A stretch of DNA of 64,000 nucleotides, from contig CAKOVP010000001.1 of the NCBI GenBank assembly GCA_934122035.1, forward strand, positions 60-64,059, in the 5' to 3' direction. Made by a program: the position numbers and the translations under genes. The DNA is from an uncultured Clostridia bacterium (lineage in GTDB: Bacteria > Bacillota > Clostridia > TANB77 > CAG-508). Below, in pieces: positions 10,751-37,120 of this stretch. The stretch's first letter is position 1; the number at the start of each line of letters is the position of its first letter. The notes under the pieces are model-generated. The model worked only from the letters and a program-made list of their open reading frames with translations, was not told the DNA's origin and searched no databases.

Positions 10751-12556
10751 TTATTTAATTTTAGCCAAACTTAGAATTGTTTTGTTTAATTCTTCTTCTA
10801 GTTCAGCAATTTCTTCTCTTGTTAAATTTTCTTGTTCTGCTTTATCTATTTTTGAAAGTATTGAATTTCTTTTTTGTAACAAATATTCTTTTCTATATGT
10901 GACAATTACATCTTCTATACATTTATTTACATCTGAAATTTCAAAATCATAAGACATAATTCCAGATAAATAATTTACAGTATCTTCATCTTCAAATAAA
11001 TCGATTAGGTTTTCTATATTAATATTTCCTTTTTCTTGTACGTCATACAATTTGTTTATTATTTGAACATTTCTTTCTACTTTTATTAAATTGCTCGTTG
11101 CTATGTTTTTTAGTTTTTCAAAAGCTACATCTGGATAATTTACTAACAAATATATTATCAAGCTTTCTCTTTTCTTCGTTTTTTCGTCTACTTCTACATT
11201 ATCTACAGCAATATGATTTGTAATATTTATTGGTGCTACCTTTTTTTCTAGTTTTTGCTCTGCTTTACTATTTGCATACAATAGCTTATTTATTTCTGCA
11301 TAGATAGCATCTTTTGAAACTTTATATTCTAGAGAAATTTTATCTATGTATACTTCTCTTTCCATATTGTTATCTACTTTTGCTAAGATTTTTGCAACTT
11401 CATTGAAAAATTTTATTTTATCATTTACATTTTCTAAATCCAAATTTTTCTTAAGCATTTTTACTTTAAATTCTACAAGTGAAATTGCACTATCTACATA
11501 TTTTTGAAATCTTTCTGGACCATACTTTACAACAAATTCATCTGGGTCTTTAGCACCCTCTATTTGTAAAATTCTAATGTCACATCCCAAATTTTTTAAT
11601 ATTTCTAGTCCTCTTAAAGTAGCAGCTTGTCCTGCGCCATCAGCATCATAACCTATTATTACTTTCTCACAACTTCTTCTTAAAAGTCTTCCTTGAGCTT
11701 CTGTTAACGCTGTTCCAAGAGATGCAACAGCATTGTGAATTCCTCTTTGATGTAATGATATGGCGTCCATATATCCTTCTACCATTATTATAGTTTTGGG
11801 ATTGTCTTTTTTAGCTATATTAAATGCAAATAAATGTCTTCCTTTGCTATATACTACATTTTCCGGCGAATTTATGTATTTAGGCTTACTATCATCTAGT
11901 ACTCTTCCACCAAAGGCAATTACTCTTTCTCTGGTGTCTACTATAGGAAACATTAATCTATTTCTATATCTGTCTATAAATTGTCCATTTTGATTTTTAT
12001 TTGCAAGGCCGGACTCTAATATTTCTGCATCTGTAAAACCTTTTGATTTTAAATATTGATATAATTCATTAAATCTGCCAGAATAGCCTATTTTAAAAGC
12101 CTTTAGAGTTTTATTGTCTAAATGCCTTTTTTTTACGTATTCTTGTGCTGGTTTTGCTGTTGGTTTATATAAATTTTGATGATAAAATTCTGCCGTTTCG
12201 CTATTTAATTCGTATATTCTAGATTTTAATTTTGCAATTCTATCGTCTTCTGGATTTTCAAGCGTTGGTAATTCCACTCCTGCTCTATTAGCAAGCATTT
12301 CTACCGATTCTTTAAAGTTTATATTTTCAATTTTGCTCACAAAATGAAAAACATTTCCGCCAACTCCACATCCAAAGCAATGGAATATTTGTTTATCAGG
12401 GGATACAGAAAATGATGGAGATTTTTCTTTATGAAATGGACATAACCCAAAAAAGTTTCTACCACTTCTCTTTAGTACTACATATTGAGATATTATATCT
12501 ACTATATCGTTTTTACTTTTGATTTCATCTAATAATTCGTCACTATATCTCGCCAT
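10751..12556 (-). CDS. dnaG: DNA primase
   Basis: 601 aa; zinc ribbon 'CPFHKEKSPSFSVSPDKQIFHCFGCGVGGN', TOPRIM 'EGYMD', immediately upstream of sigA. Confidence 0.95.
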   Translation of the reverse strand: MARYSDELLDEIKSKNDIVDIISQYVVLKRSGRNFFGLCPFHKEKSPSFSVSPDKQIFHCFGCGVGGNVFHFVSKIENINFKESVEMLANRAGVELPTLENPEDDRIAKLKSRIYELNSETAEFYHQNLYKPTAKPAQEYVKKRHLDNKTLKAFKIGYSGRFNELYQYLKSKGFTDAEILESGLANKNQNGQFIDRYRNRLMFPIVDTRERVIAFGGRVLDDSKPKYINSPENVVYSKGRHLFAFNIAKKDNPKTIIMVEGYMDAISLHQRGIHNAVASLGTALTEAQGRLLRRSCEKVIIGYDADGAGQAATLRGLEILKNLGCDIRILQIEGAKDPDEFVVKYGPERFQKYVDSAISLVEFKVKMLKKNLDLENVNDKIKFFNEVAKILAKVDNNMEREVYIDKISLEYKVSKDAIYAEINKLLYANSKAEQKLEKKVAPINITNHIAVDNVEVDEKTKKRESLIIYLLVNYPDVAFEKLKNIATSNLIKVERNVQIINKLYDVQEKGNINIENLIDLFEDEDTVNYLSGIMSYDFEISDVNKCIEDVIVTYRKEYLLQKRNSILSKIDKAEQENLTREEIAELEEELNKTILSLAKIK

Positions 12557-15721: not shown

Positions 15722-16921
15722 TCATGGTATCAAGTATAAAGTAGGGCGAGAACCATTGCCGCCGCCGATGCCGGTAGGATTGATGATGACACAAGCAGAA
15801 GCCGGATAGTAAGAACCATTGCCGCGGCCTCCTCTGAAAGCTCTGCTGCTGACTTCGGCGCCGGGGAGGCTGCCCGCTTCTTGGGTCCATTCCCAATAAT
15901 TTCCAGCAAAGTCATATATATTATTTGCCTTCCAACTTTCACTAAAGCCTGTATTTTGCTCACTTCCATGTCCATCTGCTGTATTGTTCTCGTAGTTTCC
16001 CCAAGAAGTTGAGTCTGTTATGTTAAATCCTGAACTTGCAAGCCATTTACATGTTGCATCCCACTGCAATCCCCATATCATTCTGGTTTTTACTTTTGAA
16101 CCTACAGTTAATGTTTTACAATTTTTATAGTGTTCATACCATGTTATACCTATTTGAGTAGCTCCTGTCTTCTCTCCATTTGCTGTTAACTCATATCTTC
16201 CTATATAAAATCCTTTATACTTCTCTATACTTCTTATCATTTCATCATATTCACTTACCATTGTCTCTGCCATATTTGCCAGACTACTAAATCCTGCTTT
16301 TTCTGCATTTGTGTCATTATCATATTCAGTTTCTATATCTGGCTCTCTAAAATCTGTGCTTCCCGGTAATCCTCTTGTATACCCACTTATTATTTCTGAA
16401 TTTGTATACTTTGTAGTTTTTACTCCTGTAGTTCCTGAAAGTGCTATTCCTTCTGTTACGGTTGTATATAAACTACTTGGTGTTTCTACTGGTACCCACA
16501 CCCATTGGTTTCCAGATAAATCTCTTCTTACATTTTCTTTTCCTTTATCTAATTCTTTATCTGCTACATTATCTGAAATTACTATTCCTTTTGCTTTTGT
16601 TCCTCCCACGTAATAGTAGCCTTCTGGTATTACTACATTTTCTACCGTTGTTTGTGAACTTCCAGAATTTCCTCCATTTCCAGAGTCTGTTTTATTTACA
16701 TAATTTGATAATTCTTGTTCTAAACTATTCATTGACTTTTCAGTATTTATTCTTGCTTGTTCTGTTTTGTCTCTTGCCTCCTGTGCTTTTGTTATTATTC
16801 CGTTTTCTCCTAATACTAAGTTAAGGCTTATTCCTGCTAGTATTAATAAAACAACTATTGTAACTACAAGAGCTACAAGCGTTATACCTCTGTTTCCTTT
16901 CATAAATTTTTTCTTTTTCAT
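15722..16921 (-). CDS. pilin-like N-terminal helix protein with C-terminal FGE-sulfatase (SUMF1)-type domain
   Basis: N-terminus 'KGNRGITLVALVVTIVVLLILAGISL' is class-III-signal/pilin-like without Glu+5. C-terminus has 'GNYWEWT', 'RAFRGG' and the 'GFYIGRYE' block typical of the FGE/SUMF1 fold. It is a paralog of 30553..32289. The 3' 170 bp are anomalously GC-rich. Confidence 0.6.
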   Translation of the reverse strand: MKKKKFMKGNRGITLVALVVTIVVLLILAGISLNLVLGENGIITKAQEARDKTEQARINTEKSMNSLEQELSNYVNKTDSGNGGNSGSSQTTVENVVIPEGYYYVGGTKAKGIVISDNVADKELDKGKENVRRDLSGNQWVWVPVETPSSLYTTVTEGIALSGTTGVKTTKYTNSEIISGYTRGLPGSTDFREPDIETEYDNDTNAEKAGFSSLANMAETMVSEYDEMIRSIEKYKGFYIGRYELTANGEKTGATQIGITWYEHYKNCKTLTVGSKVKTRMIWGLQWDATCKWLASSGFNITDSTSWGNYENNTADGHGSEQNTGFSESWKANNIYDFAGNYWEWTQEAGSLPGAEVSSRAFRGGRGNGSYYPASACVIINPTGIGGGNGSRPTLYLIP

Positions 16922-16950
16922 TTTTTTGTTTTTTCCTCCTTCTACTTTTG

Positions 16951-17149
16951 TTTCGTTAAGTATATAACTTAATCATAAGATACTTATACCATAAACATAT
17001 TATAAATTCAATAGAAAAGTATAATTTTAAATTATAAAAAATAGTATATAAATTCTTAAAAATTCATATACTATAAATACTTCTAAAGCAAGTAAATGTC
17101 TACAAATTTGGATTACTTACTTTATAATTAAGTTATATACTTAACGAAA
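16951..17149. other. candidate invertible DNA switch (23-bp perfect inverted repeats flanking a 153-bp promoter-bearing segment)
   Basis: IRL TTTCGTTAAGTATATAACTTAAT (16951-16973) and IRR, its exact reverse complement (17127-17149). The intervening segment carries TTGAAT-17nt-TGgTATAAG on the minus strand (-35 at 17006-17011, -10 at 16983-16988), firing toward the gene whose RBS and ATG lie 30 bp beyond IRL. Confidence 0.5.
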
Positions 17150-17257
17150 AAAGTTCACAAGTCTCTTAGAATAAAACTGGAATTTTAAAGTTTCAGTTTT
17201 TATTTTATTATTTGCAATTTTTACAATGATCAAGTTTGTAAGCTCTATTATAAAAAA

Positions 17258-17300
17258 AGATAACGATACTTAGTTTTTTTGTATCATTATCTTTTTATTT
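17258..17300 (-). terminator. hairpin terminator (bidirectional)
   Basis: AAGATAACGATAC...GTATCATTATCTT 13-bp stem with T-runs on both sides. Confidence 0.5.
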
Positions 17301-17356
17301 TGTGTTCAATCTGGATTTGAATTTAATTTTAAGTTTTATCCTTTAACTTTAATTTT

Positions 17357-19413: not shown

Positions 19414-20775
19414 CTAGTATGTTATTTTAAATTTAGACATTTGATCTAACGGAATTGTTATAACTGGTCTAAATGTAATCTTTTTCTCATTTTCACCACC
19501 TAAATCTGTTGCTAGAACACAATCTAAATCTCCAATTCCACCATTTTTTATTACGTAAACTCCCCACATTGCCCATGCTGGGTCACAATATATTTGATAA
19601 GTAGCAACTTGATATGCAGCTGTTGTTCCAAATAATACATTATAAACATTTTCATCAGTATAATAATTTTTTGCAAAACTCATATTATATGTTAATAATG
19701 TTCCTTTAAACCCATGGTTTCTATTATAGGATGCAGTTGTTGGAGAGCTTTTGTGTTGTTGACTCCTTGTTGTTCCAGATGTTTGCCATCCAGCGCCTTG
19801 TTCTTCCCAATATAATGCTGGTGTGTAAAAATCACCATATGCAGAGTTGTATTCTAGTGTATATTGTTTTCCATAATTTGAGTCTCCCCATCCACTGGTA
19901 TGCCCTGCTTTTACACTTTTTCCTTCATCATTAAAGTTGGCTTCTATGTCTTCCATATTTAAGCATCTTGCAGTTGCTCCAACTTCTGTATTACTATATA
20001 GCTGAGAACATACATAATTCATATAATATATAGCATTGTTATATCCTTTAAATCCTTTTAAGTAAAAAGAACTGTTTGTTGCAGGTTCTGTTGTTGTAAG
20101 TTGTACTTGATTGTTTTCTTTGTCTATTTTTAATATCTTCCAAGTAACATTTACGTCTTCTGTAATTGTTTGGTCTGATGCATATCCACTATATTGAGCT
20201 TGTACTACACATGTTCTTGGTACTGGGGTGTAGTCAACTTTGTCACCTTGTTCCATTTTAGATATTCTTGTTGTCTTTTCAGCTGTTGAAACATTGCCTG
20301 CTTTATCGGTTATTTTTACTTTCATATTATATTTCACATTATTTTTTACATTTTTAAAAGTATAACTTTTAGCCTGATCATCTGTAGGATCTATTGTATA
20401 GTTTTCTCCTCCATCTGAGCTGTATTGAATTGTATCTATTCCAGACTCTCTCTCTGTAACATTAATACTTAGTTTTATTGCATCTTCTCCAATTATTTCC
20501 GTGTCAAAAGAGTTAATTGTTGGCGCATCTTTATCTTGTCTTATTATTACTTCATCATCTACATTTTCTGTTGCTTCTTTTTGTGCATTAATTATTTCTT
20601 GTGCTTCCTTTTGAGCAAGTTCTGTATTTTTATTTATCTCTTGGGCTGTTGATATAAGTCCATTATCTCCATAAATAGTACTCAAACTTATTCCTGCTAA
20701 TATTAATAATACAATACTTGTTATAGCCAATGCAATTAAAGTTACACCTTTTTCATCTTTATTTCTTATGTGCAT
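19414..20775 (-). CDS. pilin-like N-terminal helix protein with FN3/Ig-like middle domain
   Basis: N-terminus 'KGVTLIALAITSIVLLILAGISLSTIYGDNG' is nearly identical to the paralogs at 15722, 30553 and 32533. It has a Ser/Thr/Tyr-rich extracellular region; no FGE motifs seen. Confidence 0.55.
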   Translation of the reverse strand: MHIRNKDEKGVTLIALAITSIVLLILAGISLSTIYGDNGLISTAQEINKNTELAQKEAQEIINAQKEATENVDDEVIIRQDKDAPTINSFDTEIIGEDAIKLSINVTERESGIDTIQYSSDGGENYTIDPTDDQAKSYTFKNVKNNVKYNMKVKITDKAGNVSTAEKTTRISKMEQGDKVDYTPVPRTCVVQAQYSGYASDQTITEDVNVTWKILKIDKENNQVQLTTTEPATNSSFYLKGFKGYNNAIYYMNYVCSQLYSNTEVGATARCLNMEDIEANFNDEGKSVKAGHTSGWGDSNYGKQYTLEYNSAYGDFYTPALYWEEQGAGWQTSGTTRSQQHKSSPTTASYNRNHGFKGTLLTYNMSFAKNYYTDENVYNVLFGTTAAYQVATYQIYCDPAWAMWGVYVIKNGGIGDLDCVLATDLGGENEKKITFRPVITIPLDQMSKFKITY

Positions 20776-30552: not shown

Positions 30553-32289
30553 TTATAAAAATAAAGCAATTCTGAAACCAGTACTATCATTTGCACTATC
30601 AGAAGTATAACCTCGTGAATTAGCAGATGTTCGACCAGAAATTCCTCCATAACTGCCTCCTCTTGAGACAATTTTTGAAGTATCAGAATATTTTTCAGTT
30701 GTCATTTCTGCTACATTTCCAGCAATGTCATAAATATTTTTTATTACACTAGAACAGCCAGTTGTAACTAATATTGATCTACTCACCATTTTTCCTGCCT
30801 CGTTGCCTGAAAAGTCAATATATCCAACATAAGTGTTATAAAAATTACCAGGCATCTGTCTCCACTCAGTATAAGAAATGCCTTCATTTTTTGGTATAAA
30901 TGTCATCATTGCATCCCAAGCATAACTACTTGGCAATTTAAAATTTAATTCATTCCCATGTTTTATTTTAAAACTTTTTACTAATTCTTGTGCTTGTGCC
31001 AATGTTACATAATTATATGGTGCTTGTCCTCTTTTTATTGTTACAGTGTTAGTTGTTGAAGAATTTTCATCTCTATAGTTTTTTGACTCTGTACTCTCTT
31101 TATCTCCAGCTTCATACCTTCCAAGGTAAAATCCTTTATACATGTCTACACTATTTTTTTCATCATCTGGTAACTTCTCTGTAAAATATTTTGTATTTGA
31201 ACTACTAAAATTTATTTTTTCAGAATTTGTCTCTGTATCTATTTCACCAGTTGCAACCTGAGAACCACTAGCAACTCTTTTATAGTCTTTTATATCATCT
31301 ACAGGTATCCAAACAAATTGATTGCCTACTAAATCAGTACCAACACTAGTAGCTCCACTATATTTATTTTCATCCTCTTTTTCATCCGAAATTATTAGCC
31401 CCCATTTTCTTGTTCCTCCAACATAGTAAAATCCATCTGGTATTATTACTCCATCTATCATATTGTCCACAATATATACGCCTTTTCCAAATGTTACGTC
31501 TGTTATTGCGCCTTCTTCTCTTCCATCTGCTTGTTGTCCTGATATATTAACAGCTATTTTATCTCCTGCTGAAAGTCCACTATCTGCTGATATTGTGTAA
31601 CTTGCTGTTCCTATTGTACCATTCCAAGTAACTGTAACTTCCGTATTATTTATTTTTACTGTAGGTGTTTGAGTTAGTTCATAGTTTGTTATTATTCTTA
31701 ATGTTACCTTATCTCCAAGTGTAGCTTTGTTCTTATTAGATCCATTGCTTTGCATTGTAACAGATGCAACTATGGGAAGATCTGTTTTTTTATAATAATT
31801 TCCAGCAACAAAGTCATCTGTTAAAGTATAATATGTTATTCCATTTATTGTAATTCCTTTTACATAGTATACTGTTAAACTAACATCATCAACAACATAC
31901 AAATCAGTTGTTGTATAATTTTTTTGTTTATTTCCTTCGCCATTATTTAATTCAACGTCTAGTAAGTCTGTTTTTATTGGATAATAGTTGCCTCCATCGT
32001 TTACGTTTTTCATATCTGAGCTTATATTTAAAGCTATTTTAGTACTAGTATCTATTGGTAATGTTCCATTATTCAAATAATATACTTTTACTTCTTCTGT
32101 TAGAGTTACTATATCTTCTTTTACTTCATTAAATCTTTTTAATTCTGTGCTAGTCGATAAACTTGATGTTATAGATATTACCAGAATCATCATTACAACT
32201 ATTGTAACAACTAAAGAAATTAATGTTACACCTTTTTCGCTTTTTAGGTTTTTATGCATCTCTAATCGCATTCCTCCTTCTAGGCACAA
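30553..32289 (-). CDS. pilin-like N-terminal helix protein with Ig-like domain and C-terminal FGE-sulfatase (SUMF1)-type domain
   Basis: N-terminus 'KGVTLISLVVTIVVMMILVISI'. C-terminus has 'FKLPSSYAWDAMM', 'GNVAEMT', 'SRGGSYGG' and 'GFRIALFL', which are hallmark FGE-fold motifs. The probable start is the Met at 32259, giving MHKNLK. Confidence 0.65.
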   Translation of the reverse strand: MCLEGGMRLEMHKNLKSEKGVTLISLVVTIVVMMILVISITSSLSTSTELKRFNEVKEDIVTLTEEVKVYYLNNGTLPIDTSTKIALNISSDMKNVNDGGNYYPIKTDLLDVELNNGEGNKQKNYTTTDLYVVDDVSLTVYYVKGITINGITYYTLTDDFVAGNYYKKTDLPIVASVTMQSNGSNKNKATLGDKVTLRIITNYELTQTPTVKINNTEVTVTWNGTIGTASYTISADSGLSAGDKIAVNISGQQADGREEGAITDVTFGKGVYIVDNMIDGVIIPDGFYYVGGTRKWGLIISDEKEDENKYSGATSVGTDLVGNQFVWIPVDDIKDYKRVASGSQVATGEIDTETNSEKINFSSSNTKYFTEKLPDDEKNSVDMYKGFYLGRYEAGDKESTESKNYRDENSSTTNTVTIKRGQAPYNYVTLAQAQELVKSFKIKHGNELNFKLPSSYAWDAMMTFIPKNEGISYTEWRQMPGNFYNTYVGYIDFSGNEAGKMVSRSILVTTGCSSVIKNIYDIAGNVAEMTTEKYSDTSKIVSRGGSYGGISGRTSANSRGYTSDSANDSTGFRIALFL

Positions 32290-32532: not shown

Positions 32533-33030
32533 GTGAGAAAAGATAGTAAAATAAGTGGAATAACTTTAATATCCTTAGCTGTGACTATTAGTGTATTAAT
32601 TATTTTATCTGGAGTAACAATAAGTAATTTATTGGGAGAGGATGGTATATTAGAAAAATCAAATCATCAAAAAGAAAAGAGTATGGTAACAATATATAAA
32701 AACCGTATAGAAACAGTAATAAATGAAAGTAAATTAAAATATAGTACAGATAATTTAAGCCTCGCAGAATTAAATGTTGAATTTAATAATAAAGAATGGG
32801 CAAGTAGCATGAGAATAACAGAGAGTGGAACAGATAAGCTACAAGTAAAAACAAATGATGGTTACTTTTTTTATGTAACTGAAAAGTCTATAGAATATAA
32901 AGGTACAAATCAAGAGGATAAGGAAGAGATTAAAATTCCAACGTCAGATGAAATATCGTACACTCCGAAAGATACAAATTGGCATGTGACTACAGTGAAA
33001 GAAGCAATAGATTATTTGATGAATAACTAA
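32533..33030 (+). CDS. pilin-sized protein with the family's conserved pilin-like N-terminus
   Basis: 165 aa; GTG start with RBS AGGAGA; 'ISGITLISLAVTISVLIILSGVTISNLLGEDG'. Confidence 0.55.
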   Translation: MRKDSKISGITLISLAVTISVLIILSGVTISNLLGEDGILEKSNHQKEKSMVTIYKNRIETVINESKLKYSTDNLSLAELNVEFNNKEWASSMRITESGTDKLQVKTNDGYFFYVTEKSIEYKGTNQEDKEEIKIPTSDEISYTPKDTNWHVTTVKEAIDYLMNN

Positions 33031-36736: not shown

Positions 36737-36810
36737 TAAATATTATTTAACAAATAAAATTATTATTCTTTTTTAAATACACTATTTTTTACATCACCTG
36801 TCTAAAGAAA

Positions 36811-37090
36811 CTAATACATTGGAAAAAAATATTCAAGTCAATAACTCGAATAACTGCTTGCAAAATTGATGCTTCATAATTTTGTAAGTAGTTTGAAGAT
36901 GTTTTGACGCAGAATATTCTTTTTACAACTGTATTAGTTTCTTGTTACTCATCTTAAATAAAAGCTAATACATTGAAAAAAATATTCAAGTCAATAACTC
37001 GAATAACTGCTTGCAAAATTGATGCTTTATAATTTTGTAAGCAGTTTGAAGATGTTTTGACGCAGAATATTCTTTTTACAACTGTATTAG
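36811..37090. repeat. tandem direct repeat: two about 126-bp units (36811-36937, 36965-37090) with 8-9 bp terminal inverted repeats and an internal hairpin
   Basis: Units are about 96% identical. Each begins CTAATACA and ends TGTATTAG, and contains AACTGCTTGCAAAATT...AATTTTGTAAGYAGTT (a 16-bp imperfect stem). Confidence 0.85.
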
Positions 37091-37120
37091 CTTTTTAATA
37101 TTCATTATAAATAATTTAAA

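Follow-up and report, generated by a model that had tools for sequence, protein, structure and literature searches.

Can a short stretch of DNA upstream of one surface-protein gene of a gut bacterium switch that gene by inverting itself, and does it still do so? The question is raised by positions 16951–17149 of a 64-kb stretch of DNA (hereafter the window) from an uncultured Clostridia bacterium, where two perfect 23-bp inverted repeats bracket 153 bp directly upstream of a gene for a 399-residue pilin-like protein. The initial annotation had taken this locus for a promoter switch flipped by a recombinase and acting on one paralogue of a surface-protein family. Comparison with related loci largely upholds that proposal: the element shares a conserved core and an outward promoter with many others, and members of this family are found in both orientations. 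The window element is very probably one of these recombinase-driven invertible promoters, present here in the ON state.

Anatomy of the element

The two arms, TTTCGTTAAGTATATAACTTAAT at 16951–16973 on the + strand and its exact reverse complement at 17127–17149, are present as first described and enclose the 153 bp from 16974 to 17126, giving an intergenic element of 199 bp (Table 1). In 100 shuffles, 0 such arm pairs were expected by chance, and no further copy of the 23-bp arm with up to three mismatches occurs across the 64 kb. Each arm harbours a palindrome of its own, a 17-bp core of the form TTAAGT-N5-ACTTAA, and the outer half-site of the proximal arm agrees with the extended family consensus TCnTTAAGT.

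The element contains one good predicted promoter, which lies inside the segment, and no good promoter elsewhere. The −10 element ends 10 nt from the core, and the promoter layout is the same in the close relatives L048 and L053 (L-numbers denote loci or contigs retrieved for comparison from species-representative genomes and public metagenome contigs). The two terminators that the initial annotation had placed past the distal repeat are found as two hairpins with T-runs on the + strand, and the 251-nt stretch past the distal arm folds at z = −6.4 relative to shuffles. The second hairpin would shield the switch from transcription of the mini-RNase III gene upstream, besides ending OFF-state transcripts.

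A family of switches with pair-matched centres

In species-representative genomes, loci with homologues of the gene contain more repeat pairs with the same core, 149–174 bp apart, each directly upstream of a pilin-like gene. Public metagenome contigs were scanned for two copies of TTAAGT-N5-ACTTAA separated by a gap of 150–180 nt, with both centres left unconstrained, which yielded at least 120 stretches; together with the earlier loci, at least 141 core pairs were obtained. Among the matches listed, the 5-nt centres of a pair are exact reverse complements in 119 of 141 cases, where chance would give 1/1024 per pair, and at least 31 different centres are distributed across at least 91 unique elements. 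The other 22 of the 141 pairs listed are mostly direct repeats on unrelated contigs; a further four have a one- or two-base mismatch in the centre. The bases immediately outside the cores are often non-complementary within a pair. Half-sites that stay constant and centres that match within a pair, next to outside bases that do not, therefore indicate selection on the half-sites and on the agreement of the two centres. By its sequence, a pair of half-sites around a matched asymmetric centre has the appearance of a tyrosine-recombinase core site, and a shared crossover region predicts this arrangement. Centres private to each pair would keep different switches from recombining together.

The extended core consensus of the family is T-C-n-TTAAGT-N5-ACTTAA-n-G-A. 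Nearly all elements listed carry a strong promoter (TTGAxx, 16–17 nt, TGnTATAAT) that points outward through one core, and its −10 ends 17–21 nt from that core among the matches listed. The gene start lies mostly 20–70 nt past a core and the product begins with a short basic leader followed by G(I/V)TL(I/V)AL..., again among the matches listed. Wherever both promoter and gene could be called in these matches, 84 elements are OFF, with the promoter reading through the far core and away from the gene, and 13 are ON, with the promoter reading through the near core into it. Grouping the same matches by identical interior gives 58 OFF-only groups, 6 ON-only groups and 2 in which both states occur. 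Terminator-like hairpins are present within 130 nt past the far core at 27 of 65 family loci versus 5 of 65 shuffled controls. Across family members, no relation was found that would link the quality of the half-sites to whether a switch is ON or OFF.

The family inverts

Direct evidence for inversion comes from loci at which both orientations are represented. The OFF contigs L058, L068 and L080 and the ON contigs L077, L092, L119, L129 and L146 have flanks that score identical, whereas the interior matches only as the reverse complement, and the junctions lie where exchange inside the cores would place them. At a second locus, L044 (ON) is opposite in orientation to L056, L067, L084 and L139 (OFF), and the interior passed an exact reverse-complement check. 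L127 and L141, a more diverged pair, are likewise in opposite orientation. The contigs of opposite orientation come from different samples. At a verified inverting locus the centre faces the same way with respect to the outer flank whether the switch is ON or OFF. The same flanks with a reversed interior at two loci, together with the diverged third pair, establish that the family does invert.

These observations bear on two explanations that involve no switch. The initial annotation had itself named a fixed paired regulator site as the alternative. In the version considered here, the two palindromic sites bind a regulator dimer, which draws the promoter region into a loop, and nothing is rearranged. 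Such an operator would account for the palindrome in each arm, as dimeric regulators bind palindromes, and for the single orientation seen at the window locus (below). A regulator needs no reverse-complementary centres, yet the large majority of the pairs have them, in at least 31 versions; related elements occur either way round with the flanks unchanged; and tyrosine recombinase genes abut the sites. Matched centres and the two orientations contradict the operator at the level of the family, and we consider it very improbable for the window element.

The second explanation, that the arms are terminal inverted repeats of an insertion resembling a miniature inverted-repeat transposable element that happens to contain a promoter, draws on the short AT-rich segment, its terminal inverted repeats and the many copies per genome. 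It fits poorly with copies whose interiors are unlike except for the promoter, which all precede members of one gene family by a fixed distance, occur in both orientations with identical flanks and vary in the repeat centre but not in the half-sites; no empty sites were seen. We give this explanation hardly any credence.

Tyrosine recombinases beside other switches

A motif scan of all open reading frames (ORFs) of the fetched loci identified tyrosine recombinases of ∼315–320 residues with Pfam Phage_integrase and SAM-like N-terminal domains. In L037 the recombinase gene stops 9 bp from the switch. A homologue with 74% identity stops 10 bp short of the L174 switch, and one with 63% identity stops 15 bp short of the switch in L202–L205. 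Recombinase genes are also located inside clusters of three or four switches (L066, L099 and L133). The nearest solved relative is the integrase of entries 6EMY/6EN0 (E ∼1e-15), which we take to be Tn1549 Int. Against the NCBIfam tyrosine-type DNA invertase models, presumably FimB/FimE-like, the recombinase scores 25 bits where the cut-off is 221, and it is also far below the cut-off of the Xer models. Based on sequence and on location at these other loci, we infer that this clade provides the enzyme and that a member is present in the genome of the window.

Another homologue, P0211 (58% identity), has no switch beside it. The recombinase-abutting switches (L174, 5958–6156; L202, 3961–4170) have the centre ATCTT in both species, and one half-site reads ACTTTA. 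As assembled, the L174 and L202 switches have their promoter pointing back at the recombinase gene and into its 3′ end, which makes an antisense feedback possible.

The window locus in other strains

The syntenic locus was gathered by exact-protein look-ups with two variants of the gene and two conserved neighbours, and a complete switch was found in 18 further samples (L154–L162, L165–L168, L170–L172, L181 and L183). The arms are perfect in 9 of the 19 assemblies, including the window, over two interior haplotypes that differ at ∼8 of 153 positions.

Several observations made at this locus weigh against a switch that is still in use. All 19 assemblies, the window included and each from a different sample, are ON and no inverted copy is among them, in contrast to the 84 OFF to 13 ON listed for the family; flipping was therefore not observed here, and we infer it by homology. 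Substitutions that break the symmetry of the arms occur in 10 of the 19, one in a half-site and three in a centre, and none is compensated in the partner arm (Table 1). Nor are the repeats better conserved than the interior, substitution density being no lower in them across nine orthologous sequences. The extended consensus has a conserved G/C that is missing from both inner half-sites of the window element; two weak half-sites are likewise present at one verified inverting locus, so this deviation is not decisive. No recombinase is encoded in the 64-kb window: Pfam analysis of 29 ORFs revealed none, nor did a scan for catalytic motifs across every ORF of 120 residues or more, in line with the initial annotation, which had noted none nearby.

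The promoter and the terminators, finally, are predictions from sequence. A consensus promoter/terminator scanner listed neither the window promoter nor either hairpin, and its promoter-like matches in this AT-rich stretch occur at chance frequency. The promoter was passed over because its −10 ends in G, and the hairpins because their stems are AT-rich. The call of the promoter, TTGAAT-17-TGgTATAAG, therefore rests on family homology, and that of the terminators on folding and comparison with the family.

Much of this could be explained if the element descended from an invertible promoter, now flips never or extremely rarely at this locus and serves as a fixed constitutive promoter for its paralogue. 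The uniform ON state (against ∼13% ON in the family, among the matches listed), the uncompensated substitutions in core or centre, the absence of excess conservation in the repeats, the departure of both inner half-sites from the extended consensus and the decay of the gene in some strains (an internal deletion in L181, an interruption in L165) would all follow. Arms that are still perfect in the window strain and eight others, across two interior haplotypes, and the weak half-sites tolerated by verified inverting loci speak for retained function instead. Furthermore, consensus assemblies give the majority orientation only, and the pattern at the window locus is also what a switch standing more than 90% ON would produce. 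We regard a promoter locked in this way as rather unlikely, although a serious alternative.

An invertible promoter remains the preferred reading for the window strain, whose element appears to possess everything needed to flip and is, by descent and anatomy, an inverton. In our reading it either strongly favours ON or has, in several lineages, already become locked in that state. Contig L173 stops 19 bp short of the distal arm and contig L163 begins inside the segment; these breaks are weak evidence for mixed orientations.

Table 1. Coordinates of the switch, its gene and adjacent features in the window, with arm substitutions at the syntenic locus of other strains
Feature	Position	Strand	Description
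Controlled gene, 399 aa	15722–16921	−	Pilin-like hydrophobic N-terminus (GITLVALVVTIVVLLILAG), then predicted C-type-lectin/FGE-fold domain
DGR-type variable region, gene 3′ end	15740–15880	−	A-poor, ∼57% GC vs 28% GC for the genome
Leader, proximal arm to gene	16919–16950	−	GGAGG 16939–16935, A-tract, ATG 16921–16919
Gene-proximal arm, 23 bp	16951–16973		Core TTAAGT-ATATA-ACTTAA at 16956–16972
Putative invertible segment, 153 bp	16974–17126		ON orientation, promoter towards gene; same in 18 other assemblies
Promoter within segment (predicted)	16983–17011	−	−35 TTGAAT 17011–17006, 17-nt spacer, extended −10 TGgTATAAG 16991–16983
Gene-distal arm	17127–17149		Core 17128–17144, centre TATAT; exact reverse complement of 16951–16973
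Hairpin then T-run	17173–17210	+	Hairpin 17173–17200, −9.4 kcal/mol; 24 nt past distal arm; predicted terminator
Second AT-rich hairpin	17254–17305		Hairpin 17254–17296, −13.2 kcal/mol; A-run before, T-run after; terminator-like on both strands
Arm substitutions in L154–L159			G-to-A in distal half-site and T-to-A in proximal centre
Arm substitutions in L160–L162			T-to-C in proximal centre
Arm substitution in L181			T-to-A in proximal centre

The controlled gene and its variable region

The pilin-like label given to the controlled protein by the initial annotation holds for its hydrophobic N-terminus and goes no further. The Pfam N_methyl model scores 17.3 bits, below its cut-off of 21.2 (E = 0.0035), and the class III signal peptide motif of type IV pilins and pseudopilins, G-(F/M)TLxE, is not matched, the protein reading RG-ITLVALVV with Ala at the Glu5 position. 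Judged by this motif, the protein is pilin-like only.

The FGE domain, also claimed at first, is not recognised in the single sequence: the Pfam FGE-sulfatase match is insignificant (E = 5.4) and NCBIfam is likewise sub-threshold. Diverse relatives were collected by a search of 1.8 billion representative proteins, and 32 were aligned. Seven of the 32 match PF03781 individually, and the profile of the relatives matches human SUMF2 (E = 0.0016). With the diverse alignment, residues 90–399 are predicted at a predicted local distance difference test score (pLDDT) of 95.4, versus a pLDDT of 32 with 27 close homologues. Foldseek places TvpA, Mtd and TaqVP as the best matches to this model, followed by PorK, CarF, FGE, EgtB and PvdO, which in our view share the C-type-lectin/FGE fold; for TvpA, Mtd, TaqVP, PorK, FGE and EgtB the probability is at least 0.98. 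Structure prediction confirms a C-type-lectin/FGE fold for the controlled protein.

As the best structural matches are variable proteins of diversity-generating retroelements (DGRs), a class to which the initial annotation had not assigned the protein, the 3′ end of the gene was examined. A variable region at this end (Table 1) differs between strains that have an identical switch. In L007 (5865–7560), three features come after a homologue of the gene: an Avd-like ORF, a reverse transcriptase containing YMDD, and a template repeat, rich in AAC, which can be aligned with the 3′ end of that homologue. Compared with this heterologous template, 14 variable regions, including those of the window and of five strains with the syntenic locus, vary in 50 of 67 adenine columns and in 23 of 93 other columns. 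The adenine-biased variation and the fold together therefore indicate that the controlled gene encodes a variable protein of the DGR type. The protein is ∼81% identical between strains with an identical switch, probably in part because of DGR variation.

The 64-kb window contains no template repeat or reverse transcriptase; both are found beside homologues in L007, L077, L080 and L119. A similarly GC-rich tail is present in ∼25 of 62 complete switch-controlled genes among the matches listed. In the inverting locus with the best verification (L077/L080/L119), a reverse transcriptase immediately follows the switched gene, so that hypermutation, too, may be phase-variable.

Three more genes of the window encode the same pilin-like N-terminus (19414–20775, − strand; 30553–32289, − strand; 32533–33030, + strand). 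An Ig-like domain is present in one of them, and another matches FGE-sulfatase weakly (E = 0.0011). No TTAAGT-type core is found upstream of these three, which leaves the 399-residue gene as the single switch-controlled paralogue among the window's four. The UMGS1476 paralogues nearest in protein sequence also have no TTAAGT-type repeats upstream. Paralogues in L004 and L007, which are without TTAAGT cores, carry an 18-nt inverted repeat (L004, 3780–3797/4043–4060; L007, 3791–3808/4043–4060) whose second arm lies within the ‘LIALVV’ codons and whose first arm lies ∼240 nt upstream. This repeat may be a different inversion site embedded in coding sequence.

Leader, neighbouring genes and other features

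The host belongs to an uncultured human-gut Clostridia lineage of 28% GC, whose relatives include UMGS1476, several Hadza metagenome-assembled genomes and Clostridium sp. CAG:780. The switch and its gene are situated in a row of housekeeping genes on the same strand: a ylqF-type GTPase, mini-RNase III, the switch with the controlled gene, a cytidylate-kinase-like gene, dUTPase, a CarD-like gene and DnaG. An Rfam search of the switch region matched no known RNA family.

Depending on the strain, the A-tract that separates the Shine-Dalgarno sequence from the start codon (16922–16934; columns 267–273 of alignment A2) has 5, 6 or 7 A, which alters the spacing of the two. A weak promoter-like sequence, TCTACA-18-TATAAT, faces outward at the distal end of the segment (17099–17128, + strand). 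Once inverted it would face the gene, so that OFF may mean low expression rather than none.

Elsewhere in the window, two tandem units of ∼150 nt (36805–36943 and 36960–37095) lie between a GH18 gene and an unknown 249-residue gene. Each is edged by a 23–24-nt imperfect inverted repeat (AAGCTAATACA...TGTATTAGCTT) with the arms ∼90 nt apart, and the units have no Rfam match at gathering thresholds.

Disrupted and frame-shifted homologues

In L181 (1500–1530; equivalent to window positions 16890–16451), the controlled gene is missing ∼440 bp including the membrane anchor; its switch is ON and has a one-base mismatch in the centre. L165 (3100–4796) comes from a strain of the window's species (99.1% identity across 3.1 kb). 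Here the gene breaks off inside the GITLVALVVT codons or immediately behind them. The frame continues as ‘...VVTMLVH’ to a stop codon, and three small ORFs, ParA, ParB and a 1491-residue SpaA-domain protein follow. The ParA/ParB block has six left-hand contexts that differ from one another, and each of them terminates in a pilin-like leader of its own (L165; L175–L180, ∼5300–12348; L174, 5948–10948), and the 115-residue protein of the block occurs on 775 contigs. A programmed swapping of 5′ ends between paralogues (L165, L175–L180) was considered and dropped, since the contexts of L178 and L180 belong to other species (housekeeping genes 73–78% identical) while the block is identical. A mobile element that uses the conserved N-terminal codons of pilin-like genes for insertion appears to be the better explanation of the block.

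Among the 120 closest homologues, 59 have an annotated start ‘MVVTIVV...’. At the three loci checked (L191, 3400–3520; L192; L193, 3400–3520 and 4860–4960), the leader is intact but, like the GITLVA codons, is displaced from the frame by one base, and the out-of-frame loci read CAAGAAAAACGG with five A, versus four A in the in-frame variant. With the leader intact at the loci checked, a reading of these homologues as silent 5′-truncated cassettes was dropped. The frame offset could reflect decay, homopolymer slippage or a real downstream start.

A model for the switch and its meaning

In the model that follows for an invertible promoter, a tyrosine recombinase encoded elsewhere in the genome would bind the two palindromic half-sites of each core. 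Strand exchange would take place within the asymmetric centre, which is necessarily identical in both partner sites, and would reverse the 153-bp segment. The flipped junctions on the + strand would then read TTTCGTTAAGTATATAACTTAAT joined to TATAAAGTAAGTAATCC and GGTATAAGTATCTTATG joined to ATTAAGTTATATACTTAACGAAA. In the ON state, transcription from the internal extended −10 promoter would pass the proximal core and then enter the Shine-Dalgarno sequence and the 399-residue gene; in the OFF state, the inverted promoter would read through the distal core into the two hairpin/T-run terminators. The gene product would be a membrane-anchored pilin-like protein with a C-type-lectin-fold tip rewritten by the DGR. 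That the window copy still flips, and that its promoter and terminators work as drawn, is what the model supposes.

Invertible promoters are well known, and the element as such adds a member to them rather than a principle. The defined core with pair-specific centres makes such switches findable in metagenomes by sequence alone and allows ON and OFF to be scored, and the recombinase clade is offered as the candidate enzyme. The element would also connect promoter inversion with hypermutation by DGRs in an abundant, uncultured lineage of the gut, where ON/OFF switching comes on top of retroelement hypervariation of the binding site. As a wider proposal, for which we see an even chance, low-GC uncultured gut Clostridia would run a two-layer surface variation in which dozens of pilin-like adhesin genes have invertible promoters of their own, with a shared 17-bp core and private 5-nt centres that keep the switches independent, and many of the binding tips are rewritten by DGRs. 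If inversion and hypermutation are linked in this way, DNA inversion chooses which adhesins are displayed and retro-mutagenesis chooses what they bind, which would bear on colonisation, on phage and immune evasion and on strain tracking in gut metagenomes.

Comparison with known systems

In the searchable literature, no description was found of the core sequence, of invertons before pilin-like Clostridia genes or of invertons that control DGR targets; large automatic catalogues may include such elements uncommented. The large switch family of these uncultured human-gut Clostridia is apparently undescribed.

The initial annotation had likened the locus to the Clostridioides difficile switches, and the likeness is partial. 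The flgB and cwpV switches of C. difficile are situated downstream of a fixed promoter, in the 5′ untranslated region, and act after initiation. With the promoter inside the segment, as found here, the analogy covers size and a trans-acting tyrosine recombinase and does not extend to the mechanism of control. The flgB (Cdi4) and cwpV (Cdi1) switches are RecV-dependent, with segments of ∼150–200 bp and repeats of ∼20 bp, and a tyrosine recombinase acting in trans serves several sites (PMC5903667). The class Clostridia, the size of segment and repeats and, as proposed here, a recombinase elsewhere in the genome are common to both. Most C. difficile repeat pairs are mutually unrelated (PMC5903667), whereas all repeat pairs of the present family share one core. 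An internal promoter is instead the arrangement of E. coli fimS, of the Bacteroides polysaccharide promoters and of the Mycoplasma penetrans mpl genes.

The E. coli fimS element, which is inverted by FimB/FimE, measures 314 bp with 9-bp repeats, needs IHF and Lrp, and is one switch per operon. The present elements resemble it in having the promoter inside a short invertible segment, in the adjacent tyrosine recombinase at some loci (L037, L174 and L202) and in the pilus-type surface structure concerned; they differ in forming a family of dozens of switches. The polysaccharide promoters of Bacteroides fragilis, with Mpi, are similar in that many promoters genome-wide answer to a global enzyme and produce combinatorial surface variation in a gut commensal. 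Mpi is, however, a serine recombinase, and B. fragilis targets capsule operons and not single protein genes.

As for the controlled protein, it has in common with DGR variable proteins (Mtd of Bordetella phage, TvpA of Treponema and TaqVP of Thermus) the predicted fold and a C-terminal region that varies at template adenines. It differs from the type V pilin tips of Bacteroides and from phage fibres in its type IV pilin/pseudopilin-like N-terminus and in lying behind an invertible promoter; the paper on the DGR-diversified type V pilin tips of Bacteroides mentions no invertible elements or inversions (bioRxiv 10.1101/2024.11.15.621889).

By analogy of layout, the closest system appears to be that of M. 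penetrans, in which the mpl (P35) lipoprotein genes form a scattered multigene surface family with an invertible promoter beside each (Horino et al. 2003, as summarised in PMC2268961). Most of these genes have a small invertible promoter and switch independently, with candidate tyrosine recombinases near some genes that act on many sites, and the present family resembles them in these respects. The two systems are unlike in phylum, protein family and repeat sequence, the present family being distinguished by a 17-bp core that all pairs share around a 5-nt centre private to each, and by targets that are diversified by DGRs.

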